A stretch of DNA of 64,000 bases from an uncultured delta proteobacterium (lineage in GTDB: Bacteria > Myxococcota_A > Polyangia > Fen-1088), in the NCBI GenBank assembly GCA_963796685.1, contig CAWCMR010000011.1, forward strand, positions 160,001-224,000, given 5' to 3'. Below are positions 15 to 9,173 of this stretch, piece after piece. The notes under the pieces are model-generated. The model searched no databases and was not told the DNA's origin. It was given only the letters and a program-made list of their open reading frames with translations. A program made the position numbers and the translations under genes. Numbering within the stretch: position 1 is the stretch's first letter; every line of letters starts with the position of its first letter.

Positions 15-925
15 ATGGCCTCGGAGACGATGTTGGATCTGGGGCGCTATCACCTGGCCGCGCTGGCACGGGACGCGTGAGTACCGGTGGGCTTTGCCCA
101 GCGGTACTCATCGCGGGAGATTGAAAGAACCCTCTCAGGGTTCTTTCATAGATTGCCGGGACCAAGGCATTGGCCAGCGCATTTCAGCCCGTGCAGGACG
201 AGCTGCAAGCAGCGACCACAGCGCGCGTGGAAGCCGAAAAAGCGATGACCAATCCGCGTGTGGCTGTGCGCTTCGCCGAGAATGCGGTGGAGCGTGCGAT
301 CCGTCAGGTGGCGCTGCTCGCCCACGGGGCGGACAACAACGCCACCGGTGGACCGGCGTTCAAGGCGTTGTTCCCGAATGGCCTCGACGCCGAGCTGCGC
401 CCCATCGGCGCATCCCAAGTCTCGGCAGCCGTTACCTTGCGCGAGCGCCTCGACACCCAACCGGCCGCAGCCAAGGTCAAGGCGCAAGTCATGGACGACT
501 TCGACAAGGCACTCGCCGCCTTCAGGTTGGCCATTGACGCCCGCCAAGCCGGCGAGACCAAAGTCAGCCAAGCCCGTGCCACCGAATTCGGCGCGCGCGA
601 GCGCTTCGTCTCTGCCTACGACAGCAACATCGGAGCCATCAGGCAGCTCTTCCCGCGCGACCGCGCCCAGCAAGACCGGAACGAAGGCGGAATCGCGCCC
701 AGCCACGCCTCGAACAACGGCGGAGGCGGTGATACACCGACCCCACCCACACCGGCGACCGACACTAGGAGCAAGCAATTCCGGCCTTCACGGGCCGAAA
801 CACGTGGAAACCGTCTCCTGGTCCACCCAGCAGGCGGTGACCACTCTGGAAATGGCCGTTGGGCCGACCTAGGTGGCATTTCCCGAAGTGGTGGATGCGC
901 AGTGCGGCGGCCCAGGTGGGGGTGA
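15..925 (+). pseudogene. Myxobacterial-type hypothetical protein interrupted by a 77-80 bp insertion
   Basis: Frame from 15 reads MASETMLDLGRYHLAALARDA then hits TGA at 78. The frame resuming at 155 (AGTKALASAFQPVQDEL...) joins in frame if 78-154 is removed. The true start may lie before the window and the C-terminal end is uncertain. Confidence 0.55.
78..154. mobile_element. Small double-hairpin insertion (REP/PATE/MITE-like)
   Basis: Hairpin 1 is tgagtaccg-gtgggctttgccca-gcggtactca (78-110). Hairpin 2 is tgaaagaaccct-ctc-agggttctttca (122-148). The element sits inside a reading frame and breaks it. Confidence 0.55.
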
Positions 926-1205: not shown

Positions 1206-2702
1206 TTACGCTGGAAAAGCGGTACGTCGCCGCGACCGACCGGACACCCAGTCATCTGCAATTGCCTGCGCTCCGTCGTGGTCCCCGGACAGTAGCTTTG
1301 TCACAGCCTTGCGGTAGGCGTTTCGGGCTCCTGAGAAAGTGGCTGGAACCGGCAGAGGCAGAGCGGCCAAGTCCCTTGGTTCAAACTTCAGCAGGCCATC
1401 TGCGTAAATCCGCCCTACCTTGAACGCCGCAGTTCTCGTGCGAGATGACAGCAATGCAAGACTCCACGCTGCCATTTCCTCGATCGTCTTGGCGCTCTTG
1501 AACCGCACGATGTAGAGAGTGTTCGTGGCAGCCAATCTAGGCATGGTCCGGAGCGAGAGCCACGGCCCATGGATGGACATTCCGCTGAGAAACCCGTCGA
1601 TACGTGCAGGCAATGGTACCCGGTACCACGGATCCCGCTGACTGACCTTGAACCCCCTGCGATGACAGCCGCCGCGTTCCTCTTGAAGCGAAAGGTAATC
1701 CTTCACCTTAGGGTGCCTGCAAACATTGGGCGAGGGGTCGAAGAGCCAGATTCTCTCTCCACTTTCGAGATGGATGTTCCACTCAATTGGCCCTATTTCG
1801 GCAGCCCGAAGCTGTCGGGCCTTGGTCAATACCGGTCTAACTGCGTCTAGTGGAAGCCCCAAGTCGCGCCTCTCGCTTTCCTTCAGCAGGAAGAAGTGAG
1901 CATCCCCTGTTACGCCTCCAATGAGAACCTCGGCCACGTCCCCGAACCGACGTTCGCAGGAAGTGCGGACACCGCATTCCTTTGTCGCAGGTTCTACTGC
2001 TTTGGGCGCTGGATGACTGAGCGACGCGGCGAGTTCGGCCGCTGTATCGCAGTCACGCCGACCGAAATGAACGTGCGGTTCGCCAAAACCACGTCCGACG
2101 ATGACGATGCACCCGTCTTGAACATCACCGAAGAGTCGATCTCTCGTCCGGAACACGTCAAACGAGCGAAACGCCCGAGGAATGCGCTCCCTCATGACTG
2201 AGGCATAGTCGGCGTGGTCCCAGGACGCCGGTAGGATGAAGCCCAGGTGGCCCCCCGTGCGAAGTCGCTGGAGAGCCCTGCAGAGAAACGCAACCCAGTA
2301 GTTGCTGCGCAAACGAATGCGCGATCCATTGGGAAGGCTCGTGACGAGTGCAGCGTCTCTCAGTCGTTTGGGAACCCGCCCTAAGGAGAGGTACGGCGGG
2401 TTGCAAATGATTCGATCGAAGAGATGATCCGAGATGTCGGCCCAAGCGACAAAGTCGACGCCCCTTCTCGTATGCGCTAGGCCATCAGCAAGCGACGAGC
2501 ATCTTTCGATATCGAACGCATGGATCCGCTCGCGGGCAACACCGGCACCGTGAAGCGCACGAAGAAACGCCCCCGTTCCAACGCAGGGGTCCAACCACCT
2601 ATCCGCGGGGCCGCCGTTGAGCGCCCGAACGAGTGCTGACGCGAGCGGAGGTGGTGTGTACACCGTCGCAGAAGAGAGCTTATCGAATGCAAAAGAGATC
2701 AT
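1206..2702 (-). CDS. N6-adenine DNA methyltransferase (N-6 DNA methylase / Eco57I-like MTase domain)
   Basis: SAM-binding motif I WLDPCVGTGAFL, catalytic NPPY, N-terminal VYTPPPLA and C-terminal GLLKFEPRDL; gamma-class motif order. Confidence 0.9.
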   Translation of the reverse strand: MISFAFDKLSSATVYTPPPLASALVRALNGGPADRWLDPCVGTGAFLRALHGAGVARERIHAFDIERCSSLADGLAHTRRGVDFVAWADISDHLFDRIICNPPYLSLGRVPKRLRDAALVTSLPNGSRIRLRSNYWVAFLCRALQRLRTGGHLGFILPASWDHADYASVMRERIPRAFRSFDVFRTRDRLFGDVQDGCIVIVGRGFGEPHVHFGRRDCDTAAELAASLSHPAPKAVEPATKECGVRTSCERRFGDVAEVLIGGVTGDAHFFLLKESERRDLGLPLDAVRPVLTKARQLRAAEIGPIEWNIHLESGERIWLFDPSPNVCRHPKVKDYLSLQEERGGCHRRGFKVSQRDPWYRVPLPARIDGFLSGMSIHGPWLSLRTMPRLAATNTLYIVRFKSAKTIEEMAAWSLALLSSRTRTAAFKVGRIYADGLLKFEPRDLAALPLPVPATFSGARNAYRKAVTKLLSGDHDGAQAIADDWVSGRSRRRTAFPA

Positions 2703-3424
2703 TCCTTCGCCACAAAGAGAGAGGTTGGCGGCATCGCGCGCTTAAGCACCACCCATGGTGAGCCTGCACTGTTCTTCAGTTCGTCGGTCTGCCATCTTGC
2801 GTACGCGGAAAGGCGATGCCCCTGCAGTGTGCGCCACCGTAACTGATGGTGGCTTTCTTTCGCGGCGAACTTCTCCCATTCTTCTTGGAACAGTTCCCCC
2901 AAGACAAACTCAACAACTACCATAGGCGTGGCAGGCAGGATTGGAATGCGCGGCACCGGTATTCCGCACGTGTCATGGATGTGCGAGTGAAAGAAGCAGC
3001 CTGGCGCGTCTCTTGCCCCAAGCTCCATTTTCCACCTCGTCAGCAGTGCCCCCTTTGCTTCGGGTGTTCCTCCGAACAGCGCGACGGCGGTTGAGGCCTT
3101 TCCCACAACGTAAAGATCCGGAAGATGCGAGTTCTTCTTGTGAGGGATACACGTGATCTCCCAGGTTGTCGCAATCTCCGCAAAGACTGGCTGTCCCGTG
3201 GCTTTGTCGTACTGAATGCTTGCCGCCGTAATCAGTGGATCGTCCTCCGGGATAGAGAGCACTCCCGTCCTTCTCGAGTCGCGAATCCGAGTCAAAAGCG
3301 AGCGGTACTCGCGCAGAACTCTTTCGGCTGTCGGGTAAAGAAACGATCGAGGCAATGACGCGACAAAATCGACTTCGGCGATTGTGTCTACGAAGCGATA
3401 CTGAAGTTCGCCCACCCCTGGCAT
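2699..3424 (-). CDS. Hypothetical protein with FHSHIHD...PRIP motif (candidate effector of the operon)
   Basis: 241-aa ORF whose stop overlaps the MTase ATG (ATGA) and which starts 5 bp after the receiver gene; no family confidently recognised. Confidence 0.75.
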   Translation of the reverse strand: MPGVGELQYRFVDTIAEVDFVASLPRSFLYPTAERVLREYRSLLTRIRDSRRTGVLSIPEDDPLITAASIQYDKATGQPVFAEIATTWEITCIPHKKNSHLPDLYVVGKASTAVALFGGTPEAKGALLTRWKMELGARDAPGCFFHSHIHDTCGIPVPRIPILPATPMVVVEFVLGELFQEEWEKFAAKESHHQLRWRTLQGHRLSAYARWQTDELKNSAGSPWVVLKRAMPPTSLFVAKE

Positions 3425-3429
3425 GGTGC

Positions 3430-4557
3430 TCAGATCTCGGCCTTCTCGCGGTCGTCCTCGACTACCAGCGCACGCAGCCGGGGGTGCTCACGAACGTCGC
3501 CCAGCAATACCCACGCGGGTTCAGCGTAGGCCGGCCAGTCGTCCGGTTGAATTCTGACTGCAGCAGAAACCGGCACTGCGGGTTCAGTTGGTCTCAAGTC
3601 GACATCAAGGCATTGCACGGAGTCTTTGGCCTCTAGCCGCGCAGGAGGATGACCAGCGATACCTTCGAGTCGTTCGTGGAGCAACCTAAGATCAAACGGC
3701 CGCCCGGCAGTAATGTTCCACACGAATGCATCCACGCCCGGTCGCCACCAGTGTTTCCCCTGGAAGTCTTTGAGTATCCCCGTGTATCGGAACGGCAAAA
3801 GGGCCATTGAGAGCTCAGATCCGTCATCTTGAAGGTCCGCTTTGACCGCCATGGGATCGAGACGGAGGCGAATGGCGAGCCGGGAAGCGTCCATCAAGAA
3901 GCACGGGTACGGCAGGATGCGGTGGAGCATCCAGCGAACGAACGCTAGACCATGGCTGTGGCTCGACATATTGTGAATGGGCGGATGGCACTGCTCAATC
4001 TCGAGCCATGCACTGTCTCTCCACTCGGATTGCGACAGGCCGAGGAGTGATTCGACGGAATCCCGGAGTCCAGCAAAGTCGTCGGGGCTCCAATCCTGAG
4101 GAAGGAGTGCGACGGCTTCCGCTAGCGACAACACCTGAGAGTGGAGTCTATCTGCGTCCTTGTAGAAGACCCACTCGAGGTCATGCGCGGCTGCCAGAAC
4201 ATGATTCCGCAACTCAGTTGGGTGCCCCAAGCTTAGGTCTCCTGGGTGGCCGGAGTGGAGAGCGAAGGCCACCGGCGCTTGACTCTTCTTCCGCTTCAAG
4301 TGGTCTTTCAGAAGCGCTGCGAGGCCAAGACCGGAGTGCACTTGGCATGCAAAAGGAAGGTTGTCGCGCTCCGGCCAAACCTCGAGCCGAAGGTCCAGAA
4401 GGACTAGTTGCCTCCCCAGAAGATCACGCTCTTCAAGTTCCTGCGGATGAAGCGCTGTTACCTTGGCGGCATCGCCGAACTCCGCCTGCAGGGCAGTCCC
4501 GACCGTCGACTCATCATCAGCCACCAGAATCTTTAACGGTGTTTGCGCAATAGCCAT
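3430..4557 (-). CDS. Response regulator receiver-domain protein with extended unknown C-terminal domain
   Basis: ILVADDE acidic pocket, LVLLDLRL phosphoacceptor Asp, FALHSG and VFYK motifs; ~240 further residues with no recognisable HTH. Confidence 0.8.
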   Translation of the reverse strand: MAIAQTPLKILVADDESTVGTALQAEFGDAAKVTALHPQELEERDLLGRQLVLLDLRLEVWPERDNLPFACQVHSGLGLAALLKDHLKRKKSQAPVAFALHSGHPGDLSLGHPTELRNHVLAAAHDLEWVFYKDADRLHSQVLSLAEAVALLPQDWSPDDFAGLRDSVESLLGLSQSEWRDSAWLEIEQCHPPIHNMSSHSHGLAFVRWMLHRILPYPCFLMDASRLAIRLRLDPMAVKADLQDDGSELSMALLPFRYTGILKDFQGKHWWRPGVDAFVWNITAGRPFDLRLLHERLEGIAGHPPARLEAKDSVQCLDVDLRPTEPAVPVSAAVRIQPDDWPAYAEPAWVLLGDVREHPRLRALVVEDDREKAEI

Positions 4558-4562
4558 TGGTC

Positions 4563-6926
4563 CTACTCCGCGAAAGTAATCTCAAGCGCGGTCACGAATG
4601 GCCGAGAGGATGGCGCCACGAAGTGTATCTCAGCGCCGTACTGATCGAGAATGCCTCGCGTGATTGGCAGCCCCAGGCCCATGCCTTGGCCGAGCACGGG
4701 ATCGAGTTCAGTGGTTGTCGATTCAAACGGGAGGAACCAACGCTCCCCCTCGGTGGGCTCTATCCTCTTCCCGGTATTCTCTAACAGGACGCGCACTCCA
4801 CCTTGATCGATGATCGAGGCCGTCGCCCGAATGCGTCCCCCGTCTCCGGCCGCCTTCACTGCATTGGTGAGCAAGTTTGAAAAGACCGTTGTTAGCTCAG
4901 CAGGGAACATGGGCGGCGTTTTGAGGTTTTCCGGGATAGCCGGCTCGATTCCTATGTTGCGCTTCGTGGCCGACCCTTCCACCAATTTGACCGCGGATGC
5001 AAAGCGCTCGGCGATGTTCAGCCGCACCCTCCGCCTACGTGCATCGGGAGTAAGGATGTCCGTAAGGTAGGACGCATGCCGCTCGAGGCTATGGCGAAGG
5101 TCCACCAGGGTGGCGTGAACGGTCGCGAGTTGCGTACGGGCCGAGGTCGGTAGACCCGGGTCGTTCCGAATGCGAGTCAATGCGGTGTCTGCGGCGCGGG
5201 CGACGCCCAAGAGGCCACGAACCTCATGGATGAAGCTACCCATCTGCGTGCCGACCGATGCAAGAACCCGGAGCATCGCTTCGTCTCGGCGGAGAGATTG
5301 AAACGTCGAGACGGCCTCATCGTAGAGCGGAATTGCCTTTGCGAACTTCTGGACTGCTGCAGCGAGATCGCCTCCCCCTGCGAGCCTTTTGGCCTCTCGG
5401 GTGAGCTCGACTGCCATCGCTGCAGCACCGGTCGCCTCAGTTGCCGGGCTCTCGGGACCATGAGTGTTACGCGATCCACCTTCGGTTGCCGTTTCGTTGT
5501 CGCGTGACGTTGGGTCTCTCCCTGCACGTCCAGACTGGCGTTCCTTTCGCCGCTCCGCCCTTGTGGCCTCTGAGGAGGCCGCGCGAACGCGGGTCGAGAG
5601 GTCGATGGCCGTACGGACGATGTCGACGAGTGCGTGGTAGGTGTCGTCTGGGACAAAACCCTCACGATTCACGAGCATCTCGAGGGACTTAGCGCCGTCT
5701 TCAATTAGGAGGACCGCCCCAAAGTAGTGGGCGTTGGGTAGTACGCTGAGTATCTCTTCTTGGACAGGGTCCTCCCCTGGGGCGGCATGCTTCAGATCCA
5801 ATTCGCCAGAACGTCTGGTGTATGCAGCATCAAGGCCCAGCCAGTCATTTCCAGTCTCACCGTAGGGAAGGACGCGGAATCCCTCCATGAATACTCGAAT
5901 ACCGGTGGTAGCGCGCACCCATGCTTGAGCGGTTTTCGGTGCGTTCAGAATTCCTTCTCGGACCAATATTCGGGCCTGAAAAAATGGGCCGAGTTGCTGA
6001 TTTGGATGAGCAAAGTCGTACGAACGCGTTTCCGCGTCCTTGTTCTTGTCGCGCGTTCGCACTGTCGGGGAGATTAGGACTCTGACCGGCTGCTTTGGGC
6101 TGGCTTCGATTTCGATGATCCAAGAGGCAGCCTCGAGCAAGGCTTGCCAATACTCGTCTCCGCCGCTGAAGTCACCTTCGAGAAGCACGCGAAATGACGG
6201 ATCCCTGCTGCTAGAGTCACGCACTCGCGGTTCCGCGAAGAGCGGCTTGGTCTTCAGAACGGACCTGGGCGGCGGCTTGATGAGGGACGCTGGTGGCTGA
6301 AAGCTCTGAACCTCCGCTAGGAACCGAGTCAGGGCAGCATCGCTCCACCTACGCCTCAGGTGGCGTAATTCGATTCGCGTACCACACTTCACTGAAGTGC
6401 GAACGGCGGAAGATCTCACCGATAGCGCGGCGTCCTTCTTCTTGGGTTCACCCGAGTCGTCGAGCTCGGACTGCTCAATCTTCTCAAGCGTTTCGTAGTT
6501 CTCGATGCTGTCCCAGTTGATTACCGCTTCGACCGACCTGCGGTCAGTGTTGGGCGTGGTCGACCACGGAACCGAGGAGACCTTGAGCGATCGCGACAGC
6601 TTATGGGCCGCAAGCCGACCTATGCCCTTCGCACCGGTGAACCTTCGCCCCCATCGCGTCGACCTGCGGTCCGTCGTATCTTTGGCCCTAGATGCGATAC
6701 GAAGGAATCCGTTCTCAAACTGTTCCGGAGCCATGCCTGTTCCGTCGTCCTCTATACGGATGATTCCGCCTCTGCCCGACCGAAGAGATTCTCCCCAAAC
6801 GACGACCTCGGATGCGTCGGCGTCGTAGGCGTTCTTCACCAGTTCGACCAGCGCAGTCGAGTCCCGCCCGACGAGCAGTGCGCCAAGTTCGCGGAAAAGG
6901 TGTGTATCAACGGAGAAACCGGCCAT
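4563..6926 (-). CDS. MORC/HSP90-like GHKL ATPase fused to a C-terminal histidine kinase
   Basis: N-terminal ELVKNAYDADA, IEDDGTGM, TGAKGIGRLA, GTRIEL; middle GFRVLPYG..NDWLGLD and REGF; HisKA GSFIHEV; HATPase NLLTNAVKA and GMGLGL. Start taken at MAGFSVD (6926). Confidence 0.88.
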   Translation of the reverse strand: MAGFSVDTHLFRELGALLVGRDSTALVELVKNAYDADASEVVVWGESLRSGRGGIIRIEDDGTGMAPEQFENGFLRIASRAKDTTDRRSTRWGRRFTGAKGIGRLAAHKLSRSLKVSSVPWSTTPNTDRRSVEAVINWDSIENYETLEKIEQSELDDSGEPKKKDAALSVRSSAVRTSVKCGTRIELRHLRRRWSDAALTRFLAEVQSFQPPASLIKPPPRSVLKTKPLFAEPRVRDSSSRDPSFRVLLEGDFSGGDEYWQALLEAASWIIEIEASPKQPVRVLISPTVRTRDKNKDAETRSYDFAHPNQQLGPFFQARILVREGILNAPKTAQAWVRATTGIRVFMEGFRVLPYGETGNDWLGLDAAYTRRSGELDLKHAAPGEDPVQEEILSVLPNAHYFGAVLLIEDGAKSLEMLVNREGFVPDDTYHALVDIVRTAIDLSTRVRAASSEATRAERRKERQSGRAGRDPTSRDNETATEGGSRNTHGPESPATEATGAAAMAVELTREAKRLAGGGDLAAAVQKFAKAIPLYDEAVSTFQSLRRDEAMLRVLASVGTQMGSFIHEVRGLLGVARAADTALTRIRNDPGLPTSARTQLATVHATLVDLRHSLERHASYLTDILTPDARRRRVRLNIAERFASAVKLVEGSATKRNIGIEPAIPENLKTPPMFPAELTTVFSNLLTNAVKAAGDGGRIRATASIIDQGGVRVLLENTGKRIEPTEGERWFLPFESTTTELDPVLGQGMGLGLPITRGILDQYGAEIHFVAPSSRPFVTALEITFAE

Positions 6927-7445
6927 CTGGGGGGTAGCGTACAGCAAGTCCCTGTGGCTTGCGACGTTTCTGGGCCTCGTTTCTGGTTCTCGTCTCCCGG
7001 GGGGCGACGGTTCCTAGTCAACGCGAAGCAGGTCAAGTCACTGGCATAACTACTCGGGTAAACCGCTACCAGCGACGCAAGCGCCAAACCAGCATCCTGG
7101 GGGCAATGCTCCCATGCCGACGATGCCGTGAAGACCGACGCAGCCGACGGCGACGGCGCCGGTGAACAGGGCCATGGAAGGGGGACCAGCAGCACCACAC
7201 CCGAGGGTGGTTCTCGAGGCTGGTTCCAGAGGTTTCGAGGAAGACACCGACAGAGTGGAGCAACCGTATTCGAGCACGCGAGCCATCGAGGCGGCAGCGT
7301 GGAAACGGTGCCACAATCTTCCGCGCGGGGCCTTGGCCCCATACCCGGGGCTCCTTGTGGTTCAGGTGGGAGAAGCACTCCGGGGCTCGCACTTGTGGTA
7401 GGAATGGGTTCGTCGGCCGGGATGTACGTAGCATCGGAGGGCACG

Positions 7446-9173
7446 ATGGTCGCAGGCACCGCGAAGAGGATCGGTCTTGTCATTGCTTCCACCCTTGCCG
7501 TCGCCGCATGCGGTGGTTCCTCGCTGAGAACCAGCAAGGCCAATGATTCAGGGACGAGCTCACCCGATCTTGGGGTGCAAGGCGATCTGGCGGCTGACCA
7601 CAATCCCGCCTACAAAGACGTGGCTGCTGACGTGGCTGGCATCATCCCCGATGCGGGATCCGCCGCTGATGCGGGCGTCGTCGCCATCGATCTCCGTCCG
7701 GATGCACCTCTCGTCAACCGCGACAGCGCGAGCCCAGATACTACCCTCATCGAGAAAGATGCTGCGAACGACGCCGCGGGCAAGCAGGACGTTGCTGCCA
7801 AGAAGGATGTCTCTTTGGACGGCGGTGGGGCGCCGGTATGCACGGGGACGCTCTTGTTCGGCGGCCTGCCCTTGGTGGAAACCGGGTCTTCCCCGAATGC
7901 GCTGGTATCGGGGGATCTGAACGGCGACCGCAGGCTGGACCTCGTGACAGCGAACGTGGGCACGAGCACGGTAAGCGTGCTGCTTGGTGACGGGACCTTC
8001 GCCGGCAGGGTGGACGGTGCGACCGGAGGACATCCAACCTCGGTGGCGCTCGGGGACTTGAACGGCGATGGCAAGCTGGACCTTGTTGCAACGAACGACT
8101 CGAGTACCCTGGGCGTGCAGCTCGGGAACGGCGACGGAACCTTCGGCACCATCGTGGGCTACCAAGACGTGTTGCCGAATTATGTGTTGATGGGTGACTT
8201 GAACGGTGACGGCAACATGGACTTGGTTGGGGCAGGACCTTGGTTGACTGTCTTGCTCGGCAGAGGCGACGGAACCTTCGCGACCACGGTGCTCGACACG
8301 AGCCTGGCCGCGGAGGCGGCGGCGCTGGGCGATCTCGATGGCGATGGCAAACTGGACGTCGTGGTGACGGCCACAAATCCGGAGGCGGTGAGGGTGTTGC
8401 TGGGCAAGGGGGACGGAACCTTCGTCGCCAAGGGGGACTACGCCATGTCGGCCATAGCGCTGGTGCTGGGTGACGTGAACGGCGATCGGAAGCTCGACCT
8501 CGTCCTTGCCATCCCTGATTCGAAGGTCATGCGCGTGCTGCCGGGCAAGGGCGATGGAACCTTTGCCGCGAGCAGGGACTATCCAACCGGCGGCACCCCA
8601 AGCGCGTTGGTGCTGGGGGACGTGAACGACGATGGCCACCTGGACATCCTTGCCGCGAGCTACGAATCCCAAAGCGTGAGCGTGCTGCTGGGCAAGGGCG
8701 ATGGCACCTTTGCAGCGAACACCGACTATCCGACTCCGAACCTCCCGACTTCCGTCGTGCTCGGTGACTTGAACGGCGATGGCGACCTAGACATCCTGAC
8801 AACGAACGGCGCCTTCGACGACGCCCTTGGCATTCTGCTTGGAAATGGGGACGGGACCTTCACCGCCAAGGACGGTTACCCAACCCTGCCTGACCTGACT
8901 CCGAAATCAGTGGCGGTGGGCGACTTGAATGGCGACGGCAAGATGGATCTGGTGACGGCGAACCACACCGGCACGGTGAGCCTGTTTCTCGGCAAAGGGG
9001 ACGGGACTTTCGCGACAAACGTGGACTTCGCCGCTGCCTCCATATGTCTACCCTGTGACGGCGGTCCGGACTCGGTGATGGTGGGCGACTTGAACGGTGA
9101 CGGTAGGCTGGACATCGTGGTCACGAACGAAGGCTCGGACACCATGAACGTGCTGCCCAACTCGTGCCAGTAG
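7446..9173 (+). CDS. FG-GAP/VCBS repeat lipoprotein
   Basis: Lipobox LAVAACGG followed by about nine GD(L/V)NGDGxxD...LLGxGDGTF repeats. Start taken at MVAGTAKR. Confidence 0.85.
   Translation: MVAGTAKRIGLVIASTLAVAACGGSSLRTSKANDSGTSSPDLGVQGDLAADHNPAYKDVAADVAGIIPDAGSAADAGVVAIDLRPDAPLVNRDSASPDTTLIEKDAANDAAGKQDVAAKKDVSLDGGGAPVCTGTLLFGGLPLVETGSSPNALVSGDLNGDRRLDLVTANVGTSTVSVLLGDGTFAGRVDGATGGHPTSVALGDLNGDGKLDLVATNDSSTLGVQLGNGDGTFGTIVGYQDVLPNYVLMGDLNGDGNMDLVGAGPWLTVLLGRGDGTFATTVLDTSLAAEAAALGDLDGDGKLDVVVTATNPEAVRVLLGKGDGTFVAKGDYAMSAIALVLGDVNGDRKLDLVLAIPDSKVMRVLPGKGDGTFAASRDYPTGGTPSALVLGDVNDDGHLDILAASYESQSVSVLLGKGDGTFAANTDYPTPNLPTSVVLGDLNGDGDLDILTTNGAFDDALGILLGNGDGTFTAKDGYPTLPDLTPKSVAVGDLNGDGKMDLVTANHTGTVSLFLGKGDGTFATNVDFAAASICLPCDGGPDSVMVGDLNGDGRLDIVVTNEGSDTMNVLPNSCQ

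Follow-up and report, generated by a model that had tools for sequence, protein, structure and literature searches.

We find that a four-gene cassette from an uncultured delta proteobacterium (GTDB lineage Bacteria; Myxococcota_A; Polyangia; Fen-1088) carries the parts of a probable phosphorelay-linked defense system resembling Ambrosia of Pseudomonas aeruginosa, with a different protein in the effector position. The cassette occupies positions 1206 to 6926 of a 64,000-nucleotide stretch of contig CAWCMR010000011.1 (GenBank assembly GCA_963796685.1, positions 160,001 to 224,000), which we call the window. It encodes a fusion of a paraMORC GHKL ATPase with a histidine kinase (gene 1), a response regulator (gene 2), an orphan protein (gene 3), and an N6-adenine DNA methyltransferase (gene 4). 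By analogy with Ambrosia, we put the probability that the whole chain acts against phages, as an anti-mobile-DNA system with its own effector, at about one in two. Taken separately, a role in defense is likely, and a working His-to-Asp relay is equally well favored. The class of system is already known; new here are the orphan in the effector slot, the lack of HNH and XRE proteins, and a separate kinase clade.

A soluble kinase and a receiver with conserved phosphorelay sites

Gene 1 (6926-4563, minus strand) encodes 787 amino acids from the ATG at 6926; the open reading frame (ORF) as called by the program opens at a TTG at 6947. Its sequence is probably that of a soluble sensor kinase, composed of a paraMORC-type GHKL(+S5) ATPase, a DHp domain, and a kinase-type HATPase_c domain. 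Pfam places HATPase_c_3 at residues 24-149 and HATPase_c at 677-773. Pfam HisKA has no match in gene 1; the DHp assignment is made because of an H-E motif (His567-Glu568) and matches of the NCBIfam ZraS/AtoS models over residues 554-770. Among 34 aligned gene 1 homologues, the residues of the first ATP pocket (E28/N32/D35, D60-G62-G64, and K100-G101-G103-R104) are at least 90% conserved, as are the H-box (H567-E568), the N-box (N684/N688), and the G2 box of the kinase half. None of the cassette proteins has a convincing transmembrane segment (19-residue hydropathy maximum 1.6 in gene 3 and 1.1 in gene 1). Two GHKL ATPase domains without a membrane anchor had already been proposed in an earlier description made from the letters alone (hereafter the sequence-only reading), and both points hold.

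Gene 2 (4557-3430, minus strand, 375 amino acids) has no Pfam match, and its nature emerges from a structural model (predicted local distance difference test, pLDDT, 95.5) that matches receiver domains with a Foldseek probability of 1.0 and a VIA Z of 12.8 (root mean square deviation 2.3 over 114 residues). The N-terminal receiver spans residues ~6-152 and is followed by a conserved output domain of ~220 amino acids with an 'RWW' motif; searches with the full model were filled by receiver-domain matches. The phosphorylation site is kept almost without exception across the 115 family members (D14 and D15 in 113 each, S/T102 in 114, and D55 and K133 in all 115). With conserved His567 in gene 1 and invariant D55/K133 in gene 2, the phosphorelay parts postulated in the sequence-only reading are intact. 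A predicted complex between genes 2 and 3 scored 0.24 against a mark of 0.32.

A conserved, mobile unit in a defense neighborhood

The four genes are co-oriented and tightly spaced, with gaps of 5 bp between genes 1 and 2 and 5 bp between genes 2 and 3, and a 4-bp ATGA overlap between genes 3 and 4. Their GC content is 0.591, compared with 0.654 in the left flank, 0.630 in the right flank, and 0.646 in the genome, and equally low values occur in 1.2% of 2507 same-size genome segments. This layout and the dip in GC content are as first described, and the reported lack of a recognizable restriction enzyme also stands, with no HNH or PD-(D/E)xK gene found within the cassette by Pfam, PADLOC, or NCBIfam scans. 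No sigma-70-like promoter was found for the cassette.

A gene 3 profile search of a genome collection returned 40 loci, and genes 1, 2, and 3 occur in this fixed order at 39 of them; the fortieth is a lone weak gene 3 match. The methylase accompanies the other three genes at 34 of the 39, and no conserved fifth gene emerged in these loci, where other ORF clusters were shadow frames or were confined to at most four loci. Metagenomes, sampled through the receiver (the best 80 of 208 matches, 67 of them distinct), gave the same picture. Where at least 500 bases remain downstream, gene 2 is followed by gene 3 (51 of 51 loci), and gene 1 lies ahead of it at 42 of 42. A methylase is seen at 29 of the 30 loci that extend 1600 bases or more downstream; these loci are the closest relatives, and the sample therefore leans to the same subtype.

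By record title, hosts fall into about 10 phyla (Planctomycetota, Myxococcota, Gemmatimonadota, Acidobacteriota, Actinomycetota, Chloroflexota, Pseudomonadota, Rhodothermota, Latescibacterota, and Poribacteria). Within the host phylum, a profile search found gene 3 in 3 of 300 other genomes, always beside genes 1 and 2 and twice with the methylase in the fetched stretch. Gene 2 was absent from all 40 relatives of the host that were searched, including the 12 of its genus (74-99% complete). Plasmids of Rhizobium and Clavibacter carry copies, and viral contigs yielded no gene 2 relative. The patchy spread, low GC content, and plasmid copies indicate that the cassette is horizontally transferred.

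Known defense genes are enriched around the cassette. PADLOC matches (E <= 1e-8) were obtained for 26 of 116 flanking ORFs and for 4 of 113 control ORFs (Fisher test, P = 2e-5). The flanking set comprised the nearest two ORFs on each side at 35 loci (117 scanned, with one locus's own methylase removed), and the control ORFs were chosen alike from 20 evenly spaced stretches of the host genome. The flanking matches include type I restriction-modification (RM), a Druantia-like helicase, GmrSD, Septu PtuB, AbiEii, and HNH, and also the generic Mfd and IstB. A conserved, mobile, defense-associated unit is thus supported, by linkage at 39 of 40 loci, absence from 40 of 40 relatives, and the defense neighbors.

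Relation to Ambrosia and other known systems

Ambrosia (AbrR-AbrA-AbrB-AbrC-AbrD) is an anti-phage system composed of an XRE protein, an N6 methylase, a HATPase kinase, a REC-wHTH protein, and an HNH protein. It is reported that all five genes are needed, that a receiver D60A substitution abolishes defense, and that expression rises on infection (bioRxiv 10.1101/2025.09.30.679545). Compared by described layout, our cassette likewise combines an N6 methylase, a HATPase/histidine kinase, a phospho-Asp receiver, and an effector position right after the receiver, and the order methylase-kinase-receiver-effector occurs in 17 of the 39 loci. Gene 1 has the two HATPase domains and conserved histidine of AbrB, gene 2 the receiver fold and invariant phosphorylation residues of AbrC, and gene 4 the N6-adenine methylase activity type of AbrA. 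The gene 1 profile also matches the kinase (E 8e-55) of a Deinococcus gobiensis XRE-MTase-HK-REC-HNH locus, a stand-in with Ambrosia's layout rather than a named Ambrosia, and the gene 4 profile matches the methylase of an HNH-type locus, L182 (E 8e-70).

Two features of Ambrosia are missing. In place of AbrD stands the 241-residue orphan; the Pfam scan that found no HNH there did detect the HNH of the Deinococcus locus. An AbrR-like XRE protein appeared in none of 146 upstream frames of 30 loci nor in 2 window frames; this search detected the Deinococcus XRE control, and it took up to five of the longest 55-200 amino acid frames per locus, so that some could be missed. The cassette also differs in its reach (about 10 phyla versus Gammaproteobacteria) and in its kinase, because the gene 1 clade lies apart from the two HNH-type cassettes in a tree of 36 kinases. 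Lacking the HNH and XRE features, the cassette would work like Ambrosia without being a member. The possibility, raised in the sequence-only reading, that the operon matches a characterized system therefore applies to the core and fails for the HNH and XRE proteins. In a search for a true Ambrosia copy, the 25 of 76 matches listed included no Pseudomonas plasmid.

Novelty as a class, which had been suggested for this operon, is not supported. The architecture was predicted in 2021 and validated in 2025 as Ambrosia (PMC8011034; bioRxiv 10.1101/2025.09.30.679545). In the former, Bellieny-Rabelo et al. described soluble proteins of HATPase_c_3-DHp-HATPase_c architecture that occur with a receiver next to C5 methylases, and proposed that such HEF_HK (PF19191)/Response_reg_2 (PF19192) pairs regulate RM genes. 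Our cassette shares with them the soluble paraMORC-derived kinase, the receiver that follows it, and the adjoining methylase. However, its receiver has 375 rather than ~580-600 amino acids and no similarity to theirs (E 1.1), its methylase is of the N6 rather than the mostly C5 type, and it has a fixed third gene. PF19191 and PF19192 gave no match at E <= 0.1 for genes 1 and 2, PF19192 was not found in the host genome, and it is not among the 25 families listed for the 115 gene 2 members. We also rejected the idea that genes 2 and 3 are a split 600-residue Response_reg_2 protein, because on one such protein the gene 2 profile reached only E 1.1 and the gene 3 profile had no match.

ParaMORC GHKL ATPases were reported in RM-like operons by Iyer et al. 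in 2008 (PMC2292703). Gene 1 resembles these in its N-terminal GHKL+S5 module, intact ATP motifs, and adjoining DNA methylase; it differs in carrying a C-terminal histidine kinase rather than a nuclease or TIR domain, and the cassette has no SF2 helicase. Detocs is a two-component phage defense in which a kinase-to-receiver relay with a different sensor controls a nucleotide-degrading effector fused to the receiver, and it is not known to have a MORC domain or a methylase. A literature search found no description of the exact four-gene cassette, the related items being the paraMORC papers and the Ambrosia preprint.

The methylase more likely serves sensing or targeting than self-marking

Gene 4 (2702-1206, minus strand, 498 amino acids) is, on its profile matches (Pfam Eco57I, E 6e-8; PADLOC MTase_II, E 1e-47; M.TaqI, E 5e-9) and motifs (motif I LDPCVGTG at 37-44 and NPPY at 101-104), an M.TaqI/Eco57I-like N6-adenine DNA methyltransferase. 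It lies upstream of the other genes at 17 loci, downstream at 16, and in convergent orientation at 1. Of the five loci with genes 1 to 3 and no methylase, two are truncated upstream (one is a duplicate of L035), and three (L005, L028, and L035) have 3.8 kb or more of DNA on either side.

The rival explanation that survives best, although we hold it to be unlikely, is classical RM. The methylase would mark self, the GHKL motor and gene 3 (as an unrecognized nuclease) would cut unmethylated sites, and the kinase and receiver would time expression like a controller protein. Consistent with this, residues 4-198 of gene 1 match the BbrUII/HgiDII restriction-enzyme family (E 8e-21, far below the cut-off), PADLOC REase_II models match gene 1, and gene 4 is a near-constant partner with a full target-recognition region. 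ParaMORCs have been proposed to act in RM systems (PMC2292703), and the relay could stand in for an XRE controller, which was not found upstream. Against this rival, phages grown with the methylase of Ambrosia stay sensitive (bioRxiv 10.1101/2025.09.30.679545), and the three loci named above do without a methylase. Moreover, at least two subtypes of the methylase occur, in three positions, and at two loci (L191 and L192) sister kinases adjoin C5 methylases. The Ambrosia data and the methylase-less loci leave the claim of the sequence-only reading that the methylase marks self unsupported, and a role in sensing or targeting is more likely than a classical self-mark.

An orphan protein in an exchangeable effector slot

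Distant homologues of the kinase, at 19 loci from 650 sampled genomes and three plasmids, have varied genes after the receiver. These encode an HNH nuclease at L154 and L182, an unnamed 200-residue protein at L184 and L185, and a gene-3-like orphan at L043, L155, and L177, and the third position is therefore an exchangeable effector slot. In a quick tree of 36 kinases with an arbitrary root, the 16 gene-3-type kinases and the Clavibacter kinase form one group (Shimodaira–Hasegawa-like approximate likelihood ratio test, SH-aLRT, 100). Gene-3-type, L043/L155/L177-type, and L191-L193 kinases share one side of a 98% branch, with the HNH-type kinases, which are long branches in this tree, and most C5-type kinases opposite.

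Gene 3 itself (3424-2699, minus strand, 241 amino acids) belongs to a family with 561 representatives at 50% identity (E <= 1e-3). Its best 150 relatives are all 200-294 amino acids long, so there are no fusions among them. Residues W88, P141, G142, H146, P158, R159, P161, E177, and W183 are invariant, and E/D134, Q180, Q201, R204, and K228 are further conserved. The model (pLDDT 92) is an alpha/beta fold with a long antiparallel sheet packed with helices; Foldseek returned 0 matches at E <= 1e-3 in the PDB and 0 in BFVD, and the best VIA match reached a Z of only 4.7, to RWD-domain and Mediator chains, which is no clear fold match. An E2/RWD-like enzyme using Cys143 was considered and rejected, because only 119 of 147 representatives retain this cysteine. 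Neither gene 3 nor any of 58 family members matched HNH. We think it somewhat probable that gene 3 is the effector, and a blank fold search with a predicted model is compatible with a nuclease.

The three orphans of L043, L155, and L177, which we call family B, are homologous to gene 3 on profile comparison (hhalign probability 43%, E 3e-4, score 33.9). Shuffled profiles peaked at 19-21, and none of 25 block shuffles reached the observed score. These orphans come from Bacteroidota and archaeal cassettes, whose receivers are also homologous to gene 2 in the output domain (hhalign probability 96%). The archaeal example is a 269-residue ORF directly after the receiver on a plasmid of Halomicrobium sp. 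LC1Hm (L155:9352-10161), missing in the record's gene table; its family B orphan extends the cassette type to Archaea. A Hymenobacter plasmid (L043:6590-13173) and L177 carry distant cassettes in the order kinase, receiver, orphan, N6 methylase, the former flanked by a Piwi-domain gene and a Schlafen gene.

A further link, to DUF2290, is borderline, runs through family B only, and is best treated as a lead from profile comparison. Family B can be aligned with DUF2290 across the same His motif, at a score of 28.2 that 0 of 40 column shuffles and 1 of 25 block shuffles reached. Direct homology of gene 3 to DUF2290 is not significant, with a profile score of 13.3 (probability 0.2%) that 24 of 40 shuffles reached. 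Pfam DUF2290 (PF10053) matched 0 of 58 gene 3 family members at E <= 0.1, and the PADLOC DUF2290 model reached E 0.0038 only, at residues 146-198. The ESM Atlas (0.82-0.85) points toward a likeness as well. DUF2290 is the helicase partner in an anti-T7 system (PMC9122126), and no function for it emerged from the literature listings and passages searched. Gene 3 has an acidic residue, a His, an Arg-x-Pro, and an aromatic helix in register with DUF2290, whereas the cassette has no helicase partner. It is doubtful, though worth stating, that an undescribed superfamily of defense effectors unites gene 3 with its homologues in Bacteroidota and archaea and possibly with DUF2290. Such effectors would attack nucleic acids in a His/Arg-dependent manner and have a fold absent from the PDB, and the one here would be switched on by a MORC clamp wired to a His-Asp relay that reads DNA methylation.

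Two other groups of distant cassettes were seen. L184 and L185 combine a C5 methylase, a paraMORC kinase, a short receiver, and the 200-residue protein, which has no Pfam match. L191-L193 have sister kinases, receivers of 400 amino acids, and third genes of 230 amino acids with an R-x-E...H-x-Y-x-H-x-Q pattern, and C5 methylases are nearby in L191 and L192. These third genes score weakly against gene 3 (20.8, shuffle maximum 18.6) and fall within shuffles against family B and DUF2290.

The close tie between receiver and orphan also bears on a second rival, abortive infection, in which gene 3 would be a toxin restrained by gene 2 and freed (or held on) by relay phosphorylation, on the pattern of Detocs, with death or arrest of the infected cell as the outcome. 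Genes 2 and 3 are hardly ever separated, a small effector of no named family behind a receiver fits a toxin, and the distant, borderline DUF2290 link leads to an anti-T7 system. However, no host toxicity was seen in Ambrosia defense (bioRxiv 10.1101/2025.09.30.679545), and the constant methylase indicates DNA recognition rather than a general toxin. We regard abortive infection as improbable.

A proposed mechanism and its weak points

Sequence shows which parts the cassette has, that their catalytic motifs are intact, that kinase, receiver, and orphan keep a fixed order, that the spread is patchy, and that the neighborhood is one of defense genes. For each functional step of the Ambrosia-like chain we infer the following, mainly from Ambrosia itself. 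A dimeric paraMORC GHKL-S5 module would act as an ATP-gated DNA clamp in place of a sensor domain and would react to DNA associated with infection, probably in concert with the methylase or the mark that it sets. The clamp signal would make gene 1 phosphorylate itself at His567 and pass the phosphate on to Asp55 of gene 2. Phosphorylated gene 2, through an HTH-like output on DNA, may then induce the cassette, recruit gene 3, or both. This effector, most likely a nucleic-acid-attacking enzyme around His146/Arg159/Glu134/Glu177, would block phage replication.

Several observations weigh against this scheme. The canonical kinase G1 box is D-x-G-x-G; that of gene 1 is N-T-G (residues 717-719), and its kinase activity may therefore be altered. 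The segment of gene 2 that resembles HTH_17 (residues 222-244) is weak, with a probability of 9% and a score of 20.5 versus a block-shuffle maximum of 18.2 (reached by 0 of 40). Gene 3 has no nuclease family or fold match in Pfam, PADLOC, NCBIfam, or fold searches, and its catalytic role, tentatively that of a nuclease, draws on conserved polar residues and on position. A Clavibacter plasmid (L041:5144-11110) carries the methylase and genes 1 and 2, followed by an unrelated 193-residue ORF with no gene 3 match. The nearest neighbors in the window are non-defense genes, with one exception described below. Finally, because the control was a single genome and kin loci are not independent, the enrichment of defense neighbors is support rather than proof.

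A role outside defense we consider rather implausible. The cassette would then be a methylase module of a selfish or regulatory kind, with the cytoplasmic two-component pair controlling methylase expression and gene 3 serving as a relay adaptor or phosphatase. This would suit the regulatory role proposed in 2021 (PMC8011034), the 90 of 116 flanking ORFs without a PADLOC match, and the lack of an enzyme match for gene 3, but homologous cassettes carry an HNH nuclease in the third slot, defense neighbors are enriched several-fold, and Ambrosia protects against phage (bioRxiv 10.1101/2025.09.30.679545).

If the Ambrosia-like reading is right, the cassette bears on questions beyond this host. What prokaryotic MORC ATPases sense is a question dating from 2008, and Ambrosia adds the puzzle of a methylase that is essential yet does not protect DNA. 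A four-gene variant without a separate regulator would be a simple setting in which to see whether a phosphorelay can be driven by a MORC clamp. The gene 3 family, with at least 561 clusters at 50% identity and no fold match, could represent a new class of enzymes and might account for DUF2290; as a putative effector family it spans bacteria and archaea.

Surroundings of the cassette

About 1.7 kb beyond the methylase end (L131:17978-19474, minus strand) lies the exception among the neighbors, a gene for 499 amino acids with a cytidine-deaminase-like domain and HATPase_c_4, which may be a second defense gene of the same island. A 251-residue ORF with no Pfam or NCBIfam match (170-925, plus strand) converges on the cassette. 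On the other side, and outside the cassette, a divergent FG-GAP repeat protein, probably secreted, is encoded at 7128-9173 (plus strand). Just past the methylase stop (861-1087) there is a degenerate G-rich tandem repeat of about five copies with 42-bp spacing and 70-89% identity.

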